Assembly (NCBI GenBank): GCA_964638995.1
Contig: CAZXCF010000002.1
Location: 1-28,150, forward strand
DNA length: 28,150 bases
Source: Candidatus Woesearchaeota archaeon
GTDB taxonomy: Archaea > Nanobdellota > Nanobdellia > Pacearchaeales > GW2011-AR1
Reading direction: 5' to 3'
The position numbers and the translations under genes are program-made. Numbering within the stretch: the first letter of the stretch is position 1; the number at the start of each line of letters is the position of its first letter. The notes under the pieces are model-generated. The model was not told the DNA's origin. It saw only the letters and a program-made list of their open reading frames with translations, and searched no databases. Below are positions 10,642 through 27,504 of this stretch, one piece after another.

Positions 10642-11493
10642 ATGACAAATAAGAAATGTATTGTATTATTTTCAGGAGGATTGGATTCTAGATTAGTTGT
10701 TAAGCTAATGCAAGAAAGAGGTTTCGAGGTTGTTGCAGTTCATTTTAAGTTGCCTTTTGGTTGTTCTTGTTTGCATGCAAAAGATTTTTGTAAAAAAAAT
10801 AAAGTAAGATTAAAAATTTTTGATTGTACTTCAGGTAGGTTGTTACAAGATTATTTAGAAGTTATCGAAAGAGCAGAGCACGGAACCGGAGTAAGTGTTA
10901 ATCCTTGTATTGATTGTAAAATTTTTATGTTGAAACATACAAACGAGTTTGCTAAATCTGAAGGAATAAAGGTTATAGCAACAGGAGAAGTTCCTGGACA
11001 AAGGCCAATGTCTCAAAAAGAAAATCAATTAAGATTGATTAAAGAAAATTCAAAGATTGATAAGTTGATTAGGCCTTTATTAGAAATAGGTTTTAAAGGA
11101 AGGCAGAGAGTAAAGCAAATTGAGTTAGCTAGAAAATTTGGGATTGATTATCCTAAACCTGCAGGAGGATGTTTGTTGTGTGAAAAACTCCTGAAAAAAA
11201 GATTTGAATTTTTAATTAAAAGAGGTTTGAATGAAAAAGAATTGCCTTTAGTTTGTATTGGAAGACATTTTGTAATTGAGCGTTGTTGGATTGTTTTAGG
11301 AAGAGATGAAAATGAGAATAAAGTTTTAGAAAATTCAAAGATTGGAAAATTGATTGAACCTAGTTTTTCAGGGCCAAGTGCTTTGATTTTAGATAATTTA
11401 AAAGATAAAGGATTAATTGAACAGCTAGTTTATTCTTATTCAAAATTGGGGAATTTAAAGGAAAGAAAACTTTTTGAAGAATTTAAAATTTAA
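10642..11493 (+). CDS. PP-loop tRNA thiolase-like ATP pyrophosphatase (ThiI/MnmA-related, no THUMP domain evident)
   Basis: LFSGGLDS PP-loop, NPCIDCK, ATGEVPGQRPMSQ, PAGGCLLCE, GRHF. TTTATAAG at -29..-22. Confidence 0.82.
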   Translation: MTNKKCIVLFSGGLDSRLVVKLMQERGFEVVAVHFKLPFGCSCLHAKDFCKKNKVRLKIFDCTSGRLLQDYLEVIERAEHGTGVSVNPCIDCKIFMLKHTNEFAKSEGIKVIATGEVPGQRPMSQKENQLRLIKENSKIDKLIRPLLEIGFKGRQRVKQIELARKFGIDYPKPAGGCLLCEKLLKKRFEFLIKRGLNEKELPLVCIGRHFVIERCWIVLGRDENENKVLENSKIGKLIEPSFSGPSALILDNLKDKGLIEQLVYSYSKLGNLKERKLFEEFKI

Positions 11494-11526
11494 AAATTTT
11501 TAAACTCAATCACAATTTAAAAAATA

Positions 11527-11840
11527 AAAATGGTAAAATATGTATATAAATTCACAGACTCTCATTTCACTCGGTCTAATCCGTCTTTCAGAGAAATCCG
11601 AATTAAATTAAAATTTGTAAATTCAAATATTATTTAAAATGGTAAAATATGTATATAAATTCACAAATGGAAAAAGAATCTCCTTTGAATTTGGAAATCT
11701 TTAATCCATTCGCAAATTTAAAATGGTAAAATATGTATATAAATTCACAAATGGAAAAAGAATCTCCTTTGAATTTGGAAATCTTTAATCCATTCGCAAA
11801 TTTAAAATGGTAAAATATGTATATCAATTCACAAATGGAA
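11527..11840 (+). repeat. Four copies of the 5' end of the 11807 gene: 30 bp at 11527-11556, then about 2.5 tandem 84-bp units at 11632-11840
   Basis: aaaatggtaaaatatgtatat(a/c)aattcaca recurs with ATG at 11530, 11639, 11723 and 11807. Units 11632-11715 and 11716-11799 are identical. Confidence 0.95.
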
Positions 11841-12334
11841 GGGAATTAACTAAAGCTGAATTTTTAAAATGGTTTCGAAAGAAATTTCTTTATGTTATTA
11901 GGAAATTTGGAATGATTGAAAAAGGCGATGTTTTAGGTTTTAGAAAAAAGAAAGATTTTAGGTCTGTAGTTCTTGAAGATCTTTTGGATTTTTTTGTTGA
12001 AAAAGCTCCCGTTAAGGTTGTTCGGTTGCCGAAAAAGTCAAATAAAATTGTTGAATCAACTACCTCTGATCAGGTTTCAGAAAAATTAACTCTGGAATTG
12101 TTTAAAGGAGATATTTCTAAACTTAAATTAAAGCCTGTTTCAGAAAATACAATTAGGCCTTTGTATTTATTTTTAGATAAAGAAATTTTATTATATGCTA
12201 AATTAAAAGGTTTAAAATTTAAAGAACCTAAATTTAAACAAAATAAAATAAGCAAATTTATAAGAAAACTAGAATCTAAACATTTGGAATTAAAACATTC
12301 AATTGTAAAAAGTTATTTAGAAATTTTTAATTAA
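11807..12334 (+). CDS. Degenerate TtcA/Ncs6(Ctu1)-like protein lacking the PP-loop and Cys motifs
   Basis: F.KWFRKK..YVIRKFGMIEKGD, IRPLYLFLDKEILLYAKLKGL and a KFIRKLESKH..LKHSIVKS tail resemble the family. The SGGKDS position reads RKKKDFRS, and the protein has no Cys. Confidence 0.62.
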   Translation: MVKYVYQFTNGRELTKAEFLKWFRKKFLYVIRKFGMIEKGDVLGFRKKKDFRSVVLEDLLDFFVEKAPVKVVRLPKKSNKIVESTTSDQVSEKLTLELFKGDISKLKLKPVSENTIRPLYLFLDKEILLYAKLKGLKFKEPKFKQNKISKFIRKLESKHLELKHSIVKSYLEIFN

Positions 12335-14496: not shown

Positions 14497-15609
14497 ATGG
14501 CGAAAAAATTGGTGTTTGATCCCTGGAAAGTGGAAGGAGATATAAATTATAAAAAATTGGTTAAACAATTTGGAATTTCCCCTATAAAAAATCTTCCAAC
14601 AGTATTTCAAGGAAATGTTTTATTTAGAAGAAATGTTGTTTTTGCGCATAGAGATATTGAAAGGATTTTGAATGCTGTCAAAAATAAAAAGCCTTTTGTA
14701 ATTATGACTGGTTTGATGCCCACCGGAAAATTTCATATTGGGCACATGCTCGTTGCACAGCAATTTGTTTTTTGGCAAAATCTTGGCGCTAAAATTTATA
14801 TTGCAGTTGCCGATTTAGAATCTTACAATGCTAGAGGTTTAAGTTTAGAAGAAGCTCGAAAAAATGCTTTGGAAGAGTATATTACAAATTATGTTGCTCT
14901 TGGTTTAGATTTAAAAAAAGCCGATATTTATTTTCAATCAGATAGAAGTAAAGAAGGGGAAAAGGCAAATGCATATTATAGGTTACAAAATTTGCTGTCT
15001 AAACACTCGACTTTTGCAGAATTTAAAGGAGTTTATGGCGAGATTACTCCTGGAAAAATGTTAAGTTCTTTATTACAAGCTTCTGACATGTTGCATCCTC
15101 AGTTAAAAGAGTTTGAAGGGAATTGTCCCGTTTTAGTTCCTGTTGGAATTGATCAGGATCCCCACTTAAGATTGGCAAGAGATATTTCTAAGAGAATTAA
15201 AAATCCCAAGTTTGTTCAGTTAAGTTCAACTTACCATACATTTATGCCTGGTTTAGGCGGTGGAAAAATGAGTTCATCTAATCCCAATTCTTATATCGCT
15301 TTAACAGATTCGCCTTCTGAAGTGAAGAAAAAAATTAATAAATATGCATTTTCAGGAGGGCAAAAAACTTTAGAAGAACATAAGAAAAAAGGTGGAAATC
15401 CTGATATTGATGTGAGTTTTCAATATTTGAAAATGTTTTTTGAAGAAGATGACAAAAAATTAGAAGAAATTGAGGAAAAATACAGAAAAGGTGAAATGTT
15501 AACAGGCGAGTTAAAGAAATATTGTATTGAGAAAATAAATAGTTTTTTAGAAAAACATCAGAAAAGAAGGGAAAAGGCTAAAAAGATGGTTGATAAGTTA
15601 TTCAAATGA
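14497..15609 (+). CDS. trpS: Tryptophanyl-tRNA synthetase, archaeal type
   Basis: PTGKFHIGH (HIGH), VPVGIDQDPH, GGKMSSS (KMSKS), KINKYAFSGG, GGNPDIDV. TTTAAAAA at -29..-22. Confidence 0.97.
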   Translation: MAKKLVFDPWKVEGDINYKKLVKQFGISPIKNLPTVFQGNVLFRRNVVFAHRDIERILNAVKNKKPFVIMTGLMPTGKFHIGHMLVAQQFVFWQNLGAKIYIAVADLESYNARGLSLEEARKNALEEYITNYVALGLDLKKADIYFQSDRSKEGEKANAYYRLQNLLSKHSTFAEFKGVYGEITPGKMLSSLLQASDMLHPQLKEFEGNCPVLVPVGIDQDPHLRLARDISKRIKNPKFVQLSSTYHTFMPGLGGGKMSSSNPNSYIALTDSPSEVKKKINKYAFSGGQKTLEEHKKKGGNPDIDVSFQYLKMFFEEDDKKLEEIEEKYRKGEMLTGELKKYCIEKINSFLEKHQKRREKAKKMVDKLFK

Positions 15610-15692
15610 AAACACTAAAATTTTCACCCAAGGCAAAAAGCAAGCTTTTAGTTGCTTTGCCAAACAAATGGAGGTTTTTGTCAAAACAATGA
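15606..15692 (+). other. Repeat-encoded coupled mini-ORF A, 28 aa (MKTLKFSPKAKSKLLVALPNKWRFLSKQ)
   Basis: ATG 15606 overlaps the trpS TGA; its own TGA (15690-15692) overlaps the thrS ATG 15689. 83-bp unit. Confidence 0.7.
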
Positions 15693-18436: not shown

Positions 18437-18621
18437 TTATTTTGGTTTTTTAGCAATAAAATTAATCATTGGTAAGAAAACAGCGTTTTCTTGAAACAAT
18501 CCATCTTTCCTTTGGCACTGAAGCAATCATCTAAAAAATCTCGATTGATGATAGTTTGGTTCAAGACTGATTAGTTTATTATGAAATATTATTTTGGTTT
18601 TTTAGCAATAAAATTAATCAT
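18437..18621 (-). repeat. Exact 33-bp duplication of the methyltransferase 3' end (18437-18469 and 18589-18621) flanking a 119-bp structured insert
   Basis: atgattaattttattgctaaaaaaccaaaataa occurs twice on the minus strand. The insert contains the perfect hairpin aagaaaac-agc-gttttctt (18474-18492). Confidence 0.93.
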
Positions 18622-26618: not shown

Positions 26619-26730
26619 GTTAAATTAAGTTTTTAAATGTTTAAATAGTTTATTCTAGAAGTTTTCCATCGAAGGTAAGAAAGCATAGGAACGCCCCGAC
26701 CGAATTTTATTGAGGAGTTTTATAAGAAAT

Positions 26731-26910
26731 TTATTCTCCTGTTTTTATTTTTCCAGAAATCATTCCTTCTAATTTTGAAGGAGTTAAAATTCTTCTTTCA
26801 ACACCAATAGAAATTAAATATTGGTTTACTAGACTCATATTTTGTCCATAAAATGTTGGGGGAACAATATGGTCTTTTCTAATGTAAATCGTTTCTTCCC
26901 TTTCAGACAT
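26731..26910 (-). CDS. Small hypothetical protein (59 aa, MSEREETIYIRK...) inside the mini-island
   Basis: ATG 26910 overlaps the upstream stop (ATGTCTGA), suggesting coupling. Confidence 0.5.
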   Translation of the reverse strand: MSEREETIYIRKDHIVPPTFYGQNMSLVNQYLISIGVERRILTPSKLEGMISGKIKTGE

Positions 26911-27142
26911 ATGGCTTCCATTCCCAAAAGAGTGCATAATCCGTATTGGTTGGGGGGTTTGATTTTAGCCCTATTTGCCCATTTGATCCCTTCTCTCTCA
27001 AATAAACCTCCCATTGCAATTGATTATTAAAAATTTTAGCAATTGTTAAAGCTTCTTCATCAGTTACTTGGTTTGGCCTTCTTAATCCTTTAGAAACATC
27101 ATACCCAAAAGCAGAATATATCCTTTTTGTTTCTTCATTCAC
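26903..27142 (-). CDS. Small hypothetical protein (79 aa) inside the mini-island
   Basis: GTG start with TTTTAAAC about 21-28 nt upstream. Confidence 0.55.
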   Translation of the reverse strand: MNEETKRIYSAFGYDVSKGLRRPNQVTDEEALTIAKIFNNQLQWEVYLREKGSNGQIGLKSNPPTNTDYALFWEWKPYV

Positions 27143-27217
27143 AGAAAATTTAATTTTAGTTAGTTTAAAAGAATTATTGTGTTTGAGTTAAAAATCCAAA
27201 TCTTCTCTTCATGGGAA

Positions 27218-27290
27218 CGCCCCGACCGAGATTCGAACTCGGGTCACTGCCTTGAAAGGGCAGCATACTTGGCCTCTGTACTATCGGGGC
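27218..27290 (-). tRNA. tRNA-Glu(UUC), intronless, CCA not encoded
   Basis: Acceptor stem GCCCCGA/TCGGGGC, anticodon arm CTGCC-CTTTCAA-GGCAG, T arm CCGAG-TTCGAAT-CTCGG. Confidence 0.96.
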
Positions 27291-27504
27291 TTGAAAAAGG
27301 CCTTGGCCTTTTGTTTGATTTTCCTTTTTTTTAATCGGAAAAGCGAATAAACTAAAAATCTTTTTAAAGATCTTTTTGATGGCTTGTTATTCGTCTGGAT
27401 TTTCTATGCCTCAAAAATACAGGTGAGGTAAAAGTTGAAAAAAACTTTTGCCTGTACTAACGGAGCATATAAAATTTAGAAGAATTTAGTTTTTAAAATT
27501 AACT

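Follow-up and report, generated by a model that had tools for sequence, protein, structure and literature searches.

MIRUs (mycobacterial interspersed repetitive units) are tandem repeats with units of tens of bases that are located between the genes of operons, contain a small ORF near the neighbouring stop and start codons, and vary in copy number in mycobacteria. Other described systems stand out by their mode of insertion: IS1630 generates long target duplications of variable size (19-26 bp), and RM insertions are associated with target duplications exceeding 30 bp (PMC2853133). No archaeal RM system passed the selection applied in that study (PMC2853133).

Here, an archaeal locus is described at which the beginning of a gene is present in four copies, three of them opening short ORFs ahead of the intact gene. 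With a probability that we put at about 0.7, this repeated gene start would be the scar of insertions by a small, apparently undescribed, non-coding hairpin element, hereafter referred to as E, producing a long target duplication upon insertion. The mobility of E is deduced from the structure of its copies. Literature searches did not find a description of such an archaeal element.

Four copies of a gene start ahead of one intact gene

The window, i.e. the whole 28,150-nucleotide stretch of DNA that was analysed, belongs to a MAG of 585 kb (~0.6 Mb) that comprises 72 contigs, is 74% complete and is assigned to the Pacearchaeota (DPANN). The names of the organisms from which homologous proteins originate place the window in Candidatus Pacearchaeota, a DPANN lineage, and archaeal housekeeping genes are found in it, among which those of an M48 peptidase, a ThiI-like ATPase and the TrpRS. 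The GC content amounts to 25-34% in the window and to 29% in the bin, the contigs at 57-60% GC being contaminants. Unless otherwise stated, the features given below are on the + strand.

The presence of four copies of the gene start, put forward in the original prediction, is borne out by Tandem Repeats Finder, a repeat search and BLAST, which all agree. More precisely, an 84-nt unit is repeated 2.5 times at 11632-11840 (99% matches, score 411), and the 41-nt block R, which contains the ATG, is identical at 11632-11672 and 11716-11756 and recurs at 11800-11840 with one mismatch, A>C at 11825. The full block is thereby found at 11632, 11716 and 11800, but the first copy matches it over 30 nt only (11527-11556, detected by whole-genome BLAST). 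Neither R nor the 84-nt unit was found by BLAST elsewhere in the 585-kb genome.

From left to right, the locus starts with R1 (11527-11556), the left copy of a 30-nt target duplication, which comprises 3 nt of upstream sequence, the ATG and 8 further codons, and is 100% identical to 11636-11665 and 11720-11749. Its ATG opens uORF1 (11530-11637, 35 aa), which begins 36 nt past the stop codon of the upstream ThiI-like gene, contains 9 codons of the gene, then reads through a copy of element E, and ends with a TAA located 1 nt before the next ATG. This spacing could equally hand ribosomes on to the next start. R2 (11632-11672) is a 41-nt repeat that serves at once as the right copy of the first duplication and as the left copy of a second one. 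It is followed by the first copy of a 43-nt filler, S (11673-11715), which resembles part of the right end of the E copy in inverted orientation, and it contains the start of uORF2 (11639-11704, 21 aa), which terminates 18 nt short of the next ATG. R3 and the second copy of S together form the second 84-nt unit (11716-11799), which is 100% identical to 11632-11715 and holds uORF3 (11723-11788). Finally, R4 (11800-11840) is the copy joined to the intact gene, where the single A>C change converts Lys to Gln at codon 7. The three short upstream ORFs translate exactly as had been predicted, namely into 35 aa and then into the same 21-aa peptide twice, uORF2 and uORF3 being in frame with the gene.

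The true start and the ancestral state of the locus

The intact gene (11807-12334) codes for a small, 175-aa TilS/TtcA-like protein devoid of the N-terminal zinc ribbon, with a weak match to TIGR00269 (E=0.0056) and 106 homologues, several of them named from Pacearchaeota, the closest of which displays 64% identity. Its conserved upstream partner (10642-11493) codes for a ThiI-like PP-loop ATPase (Pfam ThiI, E=1.3e-13). That the ATG at 11807 is the real start of the gene, as originally proposed, is supported by 12 orthologues from the same family, which align from residue 2-5 and all have the VYxFTN motif in common, as do the three closest relatives.

A comparison with orthologous loci, which had been called for in the original prediction, reveals close relatives without any such insert. 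In the closest of them (59-64% protein identity), the gene order is the same, i.e. M48 peptidase, membrane protein, ThiI-like gene, affected gene, MG2-domain surface protein (on the other strand) and TrpRS, and the stop codon of the ThiI-like gene is either 1 nt from the ATG of the orthologue or overlaps with it by 4 nt. The same arrangement of the two genes is found in two more distant genomes. In the window, 313 nt separate the ThiI-like gene from the intact gene. Since the genes of the relatives abut or overlap, and since copy 1 (11530), 36 nt past the ThiI-like stop, is at the expected site of the old start, the segment 11557-11806 is considered as extra DNA. The empty site is known from relatives with at most 64% orthologue identity, no same-species genome with an empty site existing.

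A family of hairpin elements in the same genome

The 75 nt that separate the first two copies (X, 11557-11631) form a member of the hairpin family E, as detected with nhmmer and a covariance model, and consist of a first hairpin, H1 (11557-11576), a second one, H2 (11577-11604), and an A/T-rich right end (11605-11631). The motif of X, TAATCCGTCTTTC followed by a short loop and GAAATCCGAATT, recurs in the same genome. The consensus of H2 reads TAATYCG..TTTC, loop, GAAA..CGAATT, and is matched in the window at 11578-11602. A degenerate H2 pattern gave 8 matches in this genome and none in 200 other genomes of the family, and a reversed control pattern gave none. With an nhmmer profile built without the window copy, 11576-11607 was matched at E=0.0015, in addition to ~17 other matches. 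The covariance model, whose alignment includes the window copy, recognizes 11571-11611 at E=7e-8 and has 30 matches in this genome, counted as ~27 modules at ~20 loci.

The H2 hairpin is supported by an alignment of 19 copies in which 85.8% of the cells are paired and 6 of the 13 pairs are changed on both sides, a result equalled in none of 500 shuffles, the copies being related to one another. In the window, H2 has a shortened loop and folds weakly alone (-1.1 kcal/mol). All full E copies display one layout, i.e. H1, H2, AAAY and the A/T-rich right end, and X aligns part by part with the copies at tRNA-Leu (contig C22) and tRNA-Ser (contig C14), the copies on C29 and C45 having been compared as well. 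Furthermore, the tRNA-Ser, tRNA-Leu and window loci are alike in the order of their parts, from the duplicate through H1, H2, AAAY and the A/T-rich right end to the intact gene terminus. The sites occupied by E are tRNA T-loops and gene ends, and 11 of the ~20 loci adjoin tRNA genes. One of these tRNA-associated copies is in the window itself: an H2 hairpin on the - strand at 27305-27356 (27310-27358 with nhmmer), 15 nt upstream of tRNA-Glu (27218-27290), detected at E=0.0022 with nhmmer and at E=2.6e-8 with the covariance model, in the alignment of which it is included.

Several frames of the H2 modules, on either strand, contain no stop codon, a property that would let any decoy ORF read through the element. 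A conserved coding frame in H2 (the NPSF frame) was rejected, the other frames and the antisense strand being equally open. An array of E located between the S28e and L24e genes forms one open frame of 77 codons, whose start overlaps the S28e stop (TAATG) and whose end reads TAA-A-ATG. A homology of the E arrays to the thrS repeats at 15607-15692 was also discarded, as the alignment score was reached in 510 of 3000 shuffles and is not significant. Regarding known RNAs, Rfam gave only chance-level matches (E>1) in 11300-12000, and, at three other E loci, only the tRNA and one sub-threshold S15 leader match away from the E array. No tRNA-like gene was found in 11300-12000 by ARAGORN with introns allowed, and folding revealed no excess RNA stability in the array on C12. 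A bulge-helix-bulge intron was considered for the tRNA loci and rejected, the T-arm and its inverted copy pairing without bulges.

Long target duplications at the E loci

Exact direct repeats of 18, 19, 28, 30, 34 and 49 nt flank E at 6 of the 13 loci found with nhmmer, the 34-nt repeat on C14 being deduced from two exact repeats, of 20 and 24 nt, that overlap. The repeated gene start is one of these six loci, with its exact repeat of 30 nt (11527-11556 and 11636-11665). In a control at random sites, a flanking repeat of at least 18 nt was obtained in 62 of 5000 trials. A region of the window (18437-18621), where a 119-nt insert with a degenerate H2 half (18498-18510) stands between two copies (18437-18469 and 18589-18621) of the final 33 nt of a gene, brings to seven the loci with an exact target duplication, of 18-49 nt overall. 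Its H2 half, AATCCATCTTTCC, agrees with the long form of H2, in the 5' half, at 12 of 13 nt, and 15 of 3000 shuffles were as good.

The repeats are locus-specific and copied from the local gene, such as the last 19 nt of the gene of ribosomal protein S28e, including its stop, or the end of a methyltransferase gene. At tRNA-Met and tRNA-Ser, the repeat extends from the T-loop to the 3' end and includes the trailer. Looser duplications are found at tRNA-Leu, tRNA-Lys (two genes), tRNA-Ile, tRNA-Phe and one further tRNA on C45. When the loci are read in the sense of H2, E always has the truncated duplicate on its left side and the intact gene on its right side.

E in other genera and in sequence databases

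Of 150 other genera of the family, 8 contain the hairpin according to the covariance model, which finds 24 and 17 copies in two genomes. Exact flanking repeats of at least 14 nt are present at 12 of the 33 copies inspected in other genomes, some of these repeats being due to E copies in tandem and not to a duplicated target. In two other genera, the starts of three protein genes are duplicated over 30, 32 and 37 nt around a copy of E, each duplicate comprising the ATG and 14-34 nt of the ORF. The resulting decoy ORFs read through E and have their stops from 14 nt before to 14 nt after the real ATG. In all four gene-start cases, i.e. these three and the window locus, E is oriented as the gene. 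The further duplications found in other genera concern tRNA 3' ends (16-45 nt), and there are further genera in which the hairpin lies within a mini-ORF whose TGA overlaps the ATG of the next gene.

A scan of metagenomes with the H2 pattern brought one true relative, a JGI contig on which E lies beside tRNA-Val and a tRNA-Gly-type 3' fragment on the far side of E. This arrangement may be read as a recombination between two E copies. The 64 single matches of the pattern in genome contigs are scattered over unrelated bacteria and were taken as chance, as was one match in viral contigs, on a contig of 62% GC.

Expression of the intact gene and a possible regulatory role of the array

Among 328 genes of this genome, 189 have a TATA hexamer whose first base is 27-29 nt upstream of the ATG, and Shine-Dalgarno-like motifs are few. 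In view of this spacing and of this scarcity, most mRNAs are probably leaderless. A promoter matrix was trained on 327 genes of this genome, with a median gene score of 5.2. Upstream of copy 1, it recognizes TTTTTAAA (11497-11504, within a match at 11490-11506) with a score of 6.4, at the 99.8th percentile of the background, the predicted start being ~11526. It had been claimed that only this first copy has a plausible TATA. However, promoter-like matches also precede copies 3 and 4 (score 4.1, predicted starts at 11719 and 11803, 4 nt before the ATGs), and TATATAAA, which is found inside each decoy copy, scores 7.8 (predicted starts at 11572, 11681 and 11765), so that the claim is not supported. 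A match scoring 8.0 is also found before copy 2, with a predicted start at 11643, 4 nt past the ATG at 11639. At the position corresponding to TATATAAA in the real copy, the A>C change lowers the score from 7.8 to 5.0 (predicted start at 11849). Since matches above the 95th percentile occur every few bases in this AT-rich region, the promoter scores do not discriminate between start sites.

The start of the intact gene is now 277 nt away from the old start and behind three short ORFs that open with the first codons of the gene. Its expression would be ensured either by a restart of the ribosomes after each short ORF, across gaps of 1, 18 and 18 nt, or by a weak promoter-like sequence inside the repeat. 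From there, it could be argued that the array is a regulatory device rather than a scar, in which the short ORFs would relay or throttle translation and expression of the gene would be switched, heritably and reversibly, by the number of 84-nt units. Such a device may also exist alongside the insertion history. The chained ORFs with their closely spaced stops speak in its favour, and, most genes looking leaderless, the first AUG of the transcript would be that of a decoy. Besides, at the three gene starts of other genera, no more than 14 nt separate the end of the decoy from the real ATG, the array located between S28e and L24e forms the single open frame mentioned above, and perfect 41-nt repeats spaced by 84 nt are good substrates for slippage. 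Nevertheless, an open frame through the hairpin modules is not specific, other frames and the opposite strand being open too, and an early stop past the element is expected by chance in AT-rich DNA. Neither the 84-nt unit nor the whole leader displays significant RNA structure (z = -0.36 and +0.35, respectively), and promoter-like matches are also present directly before the real ATG. A regulatory device is therefore regarded as unlikely, and insertion of E as the better account of the repeated start.

Reliability of the assembled array

Another concern is that a loop in the assembly graph, or strain variants strung serially by the assembler, could have produced the array or, at the minimum, the two complete 84-nt units. 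The MAG is made of 72 contigs, and the 209 nt of the array exceed typical short reads. In this context, the exact-protein look-ups made with the 175-aa protein, the TrpRS, uORF1 and a 65-aa antisense ORF of the repeat returned no record in other assemblies, and an independent contig was recovered via the upstream gene only. No array-spanning sequence was found in any other assembly by these look-ups and the metagenome scan.

The independent contig, from the Logan assembly of run SRR15425353, is identical to the window through copy 1 and the 75-nt insert, and stops exactly 30 nt (k-1) into the second copy, R2. This is the behaviour of a de Bruijn unitig when a repeat is entered from two different contexts, so that the contig provides independent support for the structure up to R2 and for at least one further context before R. 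Two assemblies thereby agree on copy 1, on X and on the beginning of R2, the count of 84-nt units being that of the MAG assembly alone. It could be objected that, the Logan contig breaking at the repeat, this number was the choice of the assembler. Yet copy 1, X and the start of R2 are base-identical in the two assemblies, and the break is as expected for a true repeat with two upstream contexts. In addition, the succession duplicate, element, duplicate is found at many loci and in genomes assembled by others, and a private substitution anchors the last copy. An assembly artefact is thus most improbable for the array, the exact number of 84-nt units being less secure.

Mechanism of insertion and search for an enzyme

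The enzyme was searched for in the low-GC part of the 74%-complete MAG, where neither an RT nor a Cas1, TnpB or transposase was found. Matches to rve and DDE are found only on the contaminant contigs (57-60% GC). Four other E-bearing genomes contain no RT, and an rve gene is present in only one of them. Two tyrosine recombinases were found, on C30 and at C14:147-1256, neither of which adjoins a copy of E. Off-target spacer integration of the CRISPR type (Cas1-Cas2) was discarded, the repeats being of 30 and 41 nt, the two 43-nt inserts identical and Cas1 not found in the 74%-complete MAG.

At the tRNA loci, the inner boundary of the duplication is always in the T-loop (GGTT|CRAATCC). Such repeats, which begin exactly in the T-loop and run through the 3' end, correspond to the classical sublocation of integrases, and the recombinase on C14 (369 aa) is 5 kb from one such tRNA. 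The repeats could on this basis be viewed as the attL and attR of a virus or plasmid that was integrated by a tyrosine integrase, E being what was left over after its deletion. Against this remnant of site-specific integration, the repeats differ at each locus and E is constant, which is the opposite of an att site carried by the element, and identifies the flanking repeats as target duplications. Targets other than tRNA genes, namely the gene start studied here, the S28e stop and the methyltransferase end, have unique repeats of 19-33 nt, and no integrase adjoins any copy of E. An integration remnant has accordingly little chance of being the right explanation.

As for the cuts by which E would be inserted, the duplicated stretch begins, at 5 of 8 tRNA loci, in the T-loop and extends as far as an inverted copy of its motif lying downstream, and this inverted copy covaries with the T-loop of the tRNA itself (TTCGAAT or TTCAAAT) in ~10 of 12 cases. 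Staggered cuts at two inverted TTCRAAT-like sites would fit these data and would be reminiscent of IS1630. To our knowledge, no enzyme is known in archaea for an insertion with long and variable duplications, and the enzymology of E could turn out to be new. The location of the surviving E copies at gene termini is expected from selection alone, because only the insertions that rebuild a terminus leave the gene whole.

A proposed history of the locus

The insertion of E would account for the locus in three steps, of which the first can be read from the logic of the sequence. The ancestral gene began at 11530, 36 nt after its ThiI-like partner, and a copy of E of ~75-79 nt entered 27 nt into the ORF. 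As the 30 nt that were duplicated begin 3 nt upstream of the ATG and reach codon 9, a complete start was recreated downstream of the insert. In a second step, a 43-nt inverted fragment of the right end of E would have been placed just after the new start, 41 nt being duplicated. As the 41-nt repeat includes 4 nt (ATTT) of the X insert that are absent from R1, the S event would be later than that of X. In a third step, slippage or unequal exchange involving the 41-nt repeats would have given rise to a second tandem copy of the 84 nt of R plus S. The arrangement R-S-R must predate this duplication, since a plain tandem duplication cannot yield 2.5 units. The last change would be the single A>C substitution in the copy attached to the gene. 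A diversity-generating retroelement as the origin of this difference was rejected, with no RT and one difference only.

The origin of S deserves a separate comment. Its reverse complement matches the right end of X over 19 of 22 nt, which none of 5000 shuffles equalled, and this similarity also appears as the inverted repeat I2. S was not detected as a member of the E family by either family HMM, and a scan of metagenomes with its 32-nt core gave 0 matches. A derivation of S from the next 43 nt of the gene, as a diverged copy, was rejected, its score being reached in 1265 of 5000 shuffles. S may thus derive from the right end of E, through a link that is based on one 22-nt alignment and is weaker than that of X.

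It had been proposed that repeated insertion with a 30-41 bp target duplication was followed by tandem amplification. The first part is strengthened by the membership of X in a dispersed family with long target duplications at other copies and by the three gene starts hit likewise in two other genera, whereas the link of S to E and the tandem step are ones that we infer. Replication slippage or template switching confined to the locus, without a mobile element, would explain the two identical tandem 84-nt units and, through a fold-back copying error, the inverted similarity of X and S, but deserves hardly any credence, given that X has relatives whose two hairpins and order of parts are common to ~20 other loci, that 2.5 units are impossible by simple tandem duplication without a prior R-S-R, and that S shows no relation to the stretch of the gene that would have served as template.

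Beyond this history, we tentatively propose, as a possibility rather than as an expectation, that E is an undescribed kind of archaeal mobile element, i.e. a hairpin cassette of 50-130 nt without a transposase of any type searched for. It would insert 15-35 nt inside a gene terminus (tRNA T-loops, the first ~10 codons or the last codons) in a fixed orientation, with a duplication of 18-49 nt that rebuilds the terminus. At the start of protein genes, it would be tolerated because ribosomes would be passed from the decoy ORF to the rebuilt start, and here the expression of the tRNA-modification partner gene would be tuned by the number of 84-nt units.

Nearly every insertion is expected to be lethal in a very small genome packed with genes, and an element that rebuilds the terminus it enters could explain the spread of repeats there. 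E could likewise explain the recurrent presence of copied gene ends at tRNA genes, start codons and stop codons in DPANN genomes, and its loci constitute a concrete, testable set for a mechanism of insertion with long, variable target duplications. The window locus is also a natural test bed for the restart of translation on leaderless archaeal mRNAs. Finally, caution is needed in annotation, both with the decoy starts of such loci and with a tRNA 3' end repeated downstream of the tRNA, which is not necessarily the att site of an integrase.

Comparison with known systems

IS1630 and RM insertions share with E the long, site-variable duplications (18-49 nt for E), several of which include a gene end or a tRNA 3' end and keep the gene intact. 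However, IS1630 encodes its own transposase, as an autonomous IS, and RM insertions carry genes, whereas E is 54-130 nt in length, non-coding and without a known enzyme. In addition, the orientation of E is fixed towards the intact gene terminus, unlike that of IS1630 and RM insertions, and the cases of long duplication known so far are all bacterial.

Like MITEs, E is small, non-autonomous, multi-copy and patchily distributed among related genomes. It differs from them in that X and the copies aligned with it have internal hairpins only and no terminal inverted repeats, in that its duplications of 18-49 nt vary with the locus instead of being short and fixed in length, and in that no cognate IS was found in the low-GC contigs. 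At tRNA genes, E resembles the attL/attR duplications of the T-loop sublocation, with a repeat that runs from the T-loop over the 3' end and leaves the tRNA whole. Yet the repeats of E are copied from each target, the starts and ends of protein genes are hit as well, and there is neither an integrase nor cargo.

Regarding expression, the window locus is similar to upstream ORFs, to leader peptides and to contingency loci of simple repeats, since short ORFs precede the gene and the number of repeats could change. In contrast to these, its uORFs are by-products of target duplication that are identical to the N-terminus of the gene, with no conserved peptide, and its unit is of 84 nt and not of 1-8 nt. 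The array also resembles MIRUs by its tandem units with small ORFs between the genes of an operon, but MIRU units are not built from the start of the downstream gene and, in the window, only uORF1 is tightly coupled to the next start (1-nt gap), the others being 18 nt away. Taken together, these comparisons suggest that the locus would work like an insertion with long target duplication, and that it looks like a MIRU-type repeat between the genes of an operon.

Duplicated gene boundaries

At the start of the gene encoding the 175-aa TilS/TtcA-like protein (11807), which is preceded by three decoy copies of itself, the 30-nt duplication begins at 11527, a position that coincides with the transcription start of the first copy as predicted with the promoter matrix (11526). 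Of the three gene-start cases in other genera, two likewise have a duplication that begins 1-3 nt ahead of the ATG. The real gene start differs from its three decoys by a single A>C change at 11825, replacing Lys by Gln, and this change disrupts TATATAAA, a strong promoter-like site lying within the coding sequence, whose promoter-matrix score thereby drops from 7.8 to 5.0. The substitution may reflect selection against an internal start, or may be due to chance.

The N-terminus of this protein family was compared between the window (11807-11900) and the orthologue loci (L010-L017). Most orthologues carry there a CxxC...CxxC zinc ribbon, all four cysteines of which are lost in the lineage of the window and its closest relatives, with retention of the surrounding VYxFTN...F motif.

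A duplicated gene end is found at 18437-18621, where exact copies of the last 33 nt of the gene surround a 119-nt insert. This insert contains, at 18498-18510, a degenerate half (AATCCATCTTTCC) of the hairpin of E, the proposed family of small non-coding hairpin elements. The duplications at 18437-18621 and 11527 appear to result from one and the same process.

Elsewhere in G000, the metagenome-assembled genome from which the window originates, an array of three tandem E modules lies on the minus strand between the ribosomal protein genes S28e and L24e (C12:12320-12547, corresponding to L033:521-748), bounded on both sides by the duplicated last 19 nt of S28e. The entire insert forms a single open frame of 77 codons, which begins on the S28e stop codon (TAATG), ends in the duplicated S28e C-terminus and is followed by the TAA-A-ATG of L24e.

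High-GC contigs in the bin

The G000 bin, of about 29% GC, also contains eleven short contigs of 42-65% GC (C48, C50, C51, C60, C61, C64, C67-C69, C71 and C72), which are probably bacterial contamination. Transposases are encoded on two of them, a Mu/Tn7-like one (rve plus Mu-transpos_C) on C50, which also carries an AAA_22 ATPase, and one of the DDE type on C67; neither should be taken as belonging to the archaeon.

E copies at tRNA genes

In the window, an E hairpin is located on the minus strand at 27305-27356, upstream of tRNA-Glu and 15 nt away from it, and the final 18 nt of this tRNA gene recur about 500 nt downstream (26684-27229) with 17 of 18 positions identical. At the tRNA-Ser(GGA) locus (C14:6215-6600, L113), the 3' end of the gene is present in three copies; the 34-nt duplication of the E copy begins in the T-loop, and in the distal 3'-end copy lies an unrelated insert, about 150 nt long and containing internal repeats, with a 10-nt duplication.

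Besides, many G000 tRNA genes (on C6, C8, C9, C14, C15, C19, C22, C28, C29 and C45) are followed, after 10-30 nt, by their own T-loop motif in inverted form (ATTCGAA or ATTTGAA). This inverted copy covaries with the T-loop of the tRNA in about 10 of 12 cases, and at five of eight loci the duplicated stretch has its outer limit there. The inverted motif may be a second cut site of the agent that inserts E.

Immediately past tRNA-Trp, a minus-strand stretch (C6:18140-18235, L005/L035) shows similarity to the left part of X, the E copy at 11557-11631, as well as to S, the 43-nt filler of the 84-nt unit (from 11673). It is followed by a fragment resembling the T-arm plus acceptor of a different tRNA; in this region, ARAGORN and Rfam called tRNA-Trp and nothing else. 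Finally, in a related organism (JGI contig Ga0207414_1018088, L111, 387-560), E adjoins an intact tRNA-Val and has a tRNA-Gly-type 3' end across from it, and these mixed flanks suggest that E copies from different tRNA loci have recombined with each other.
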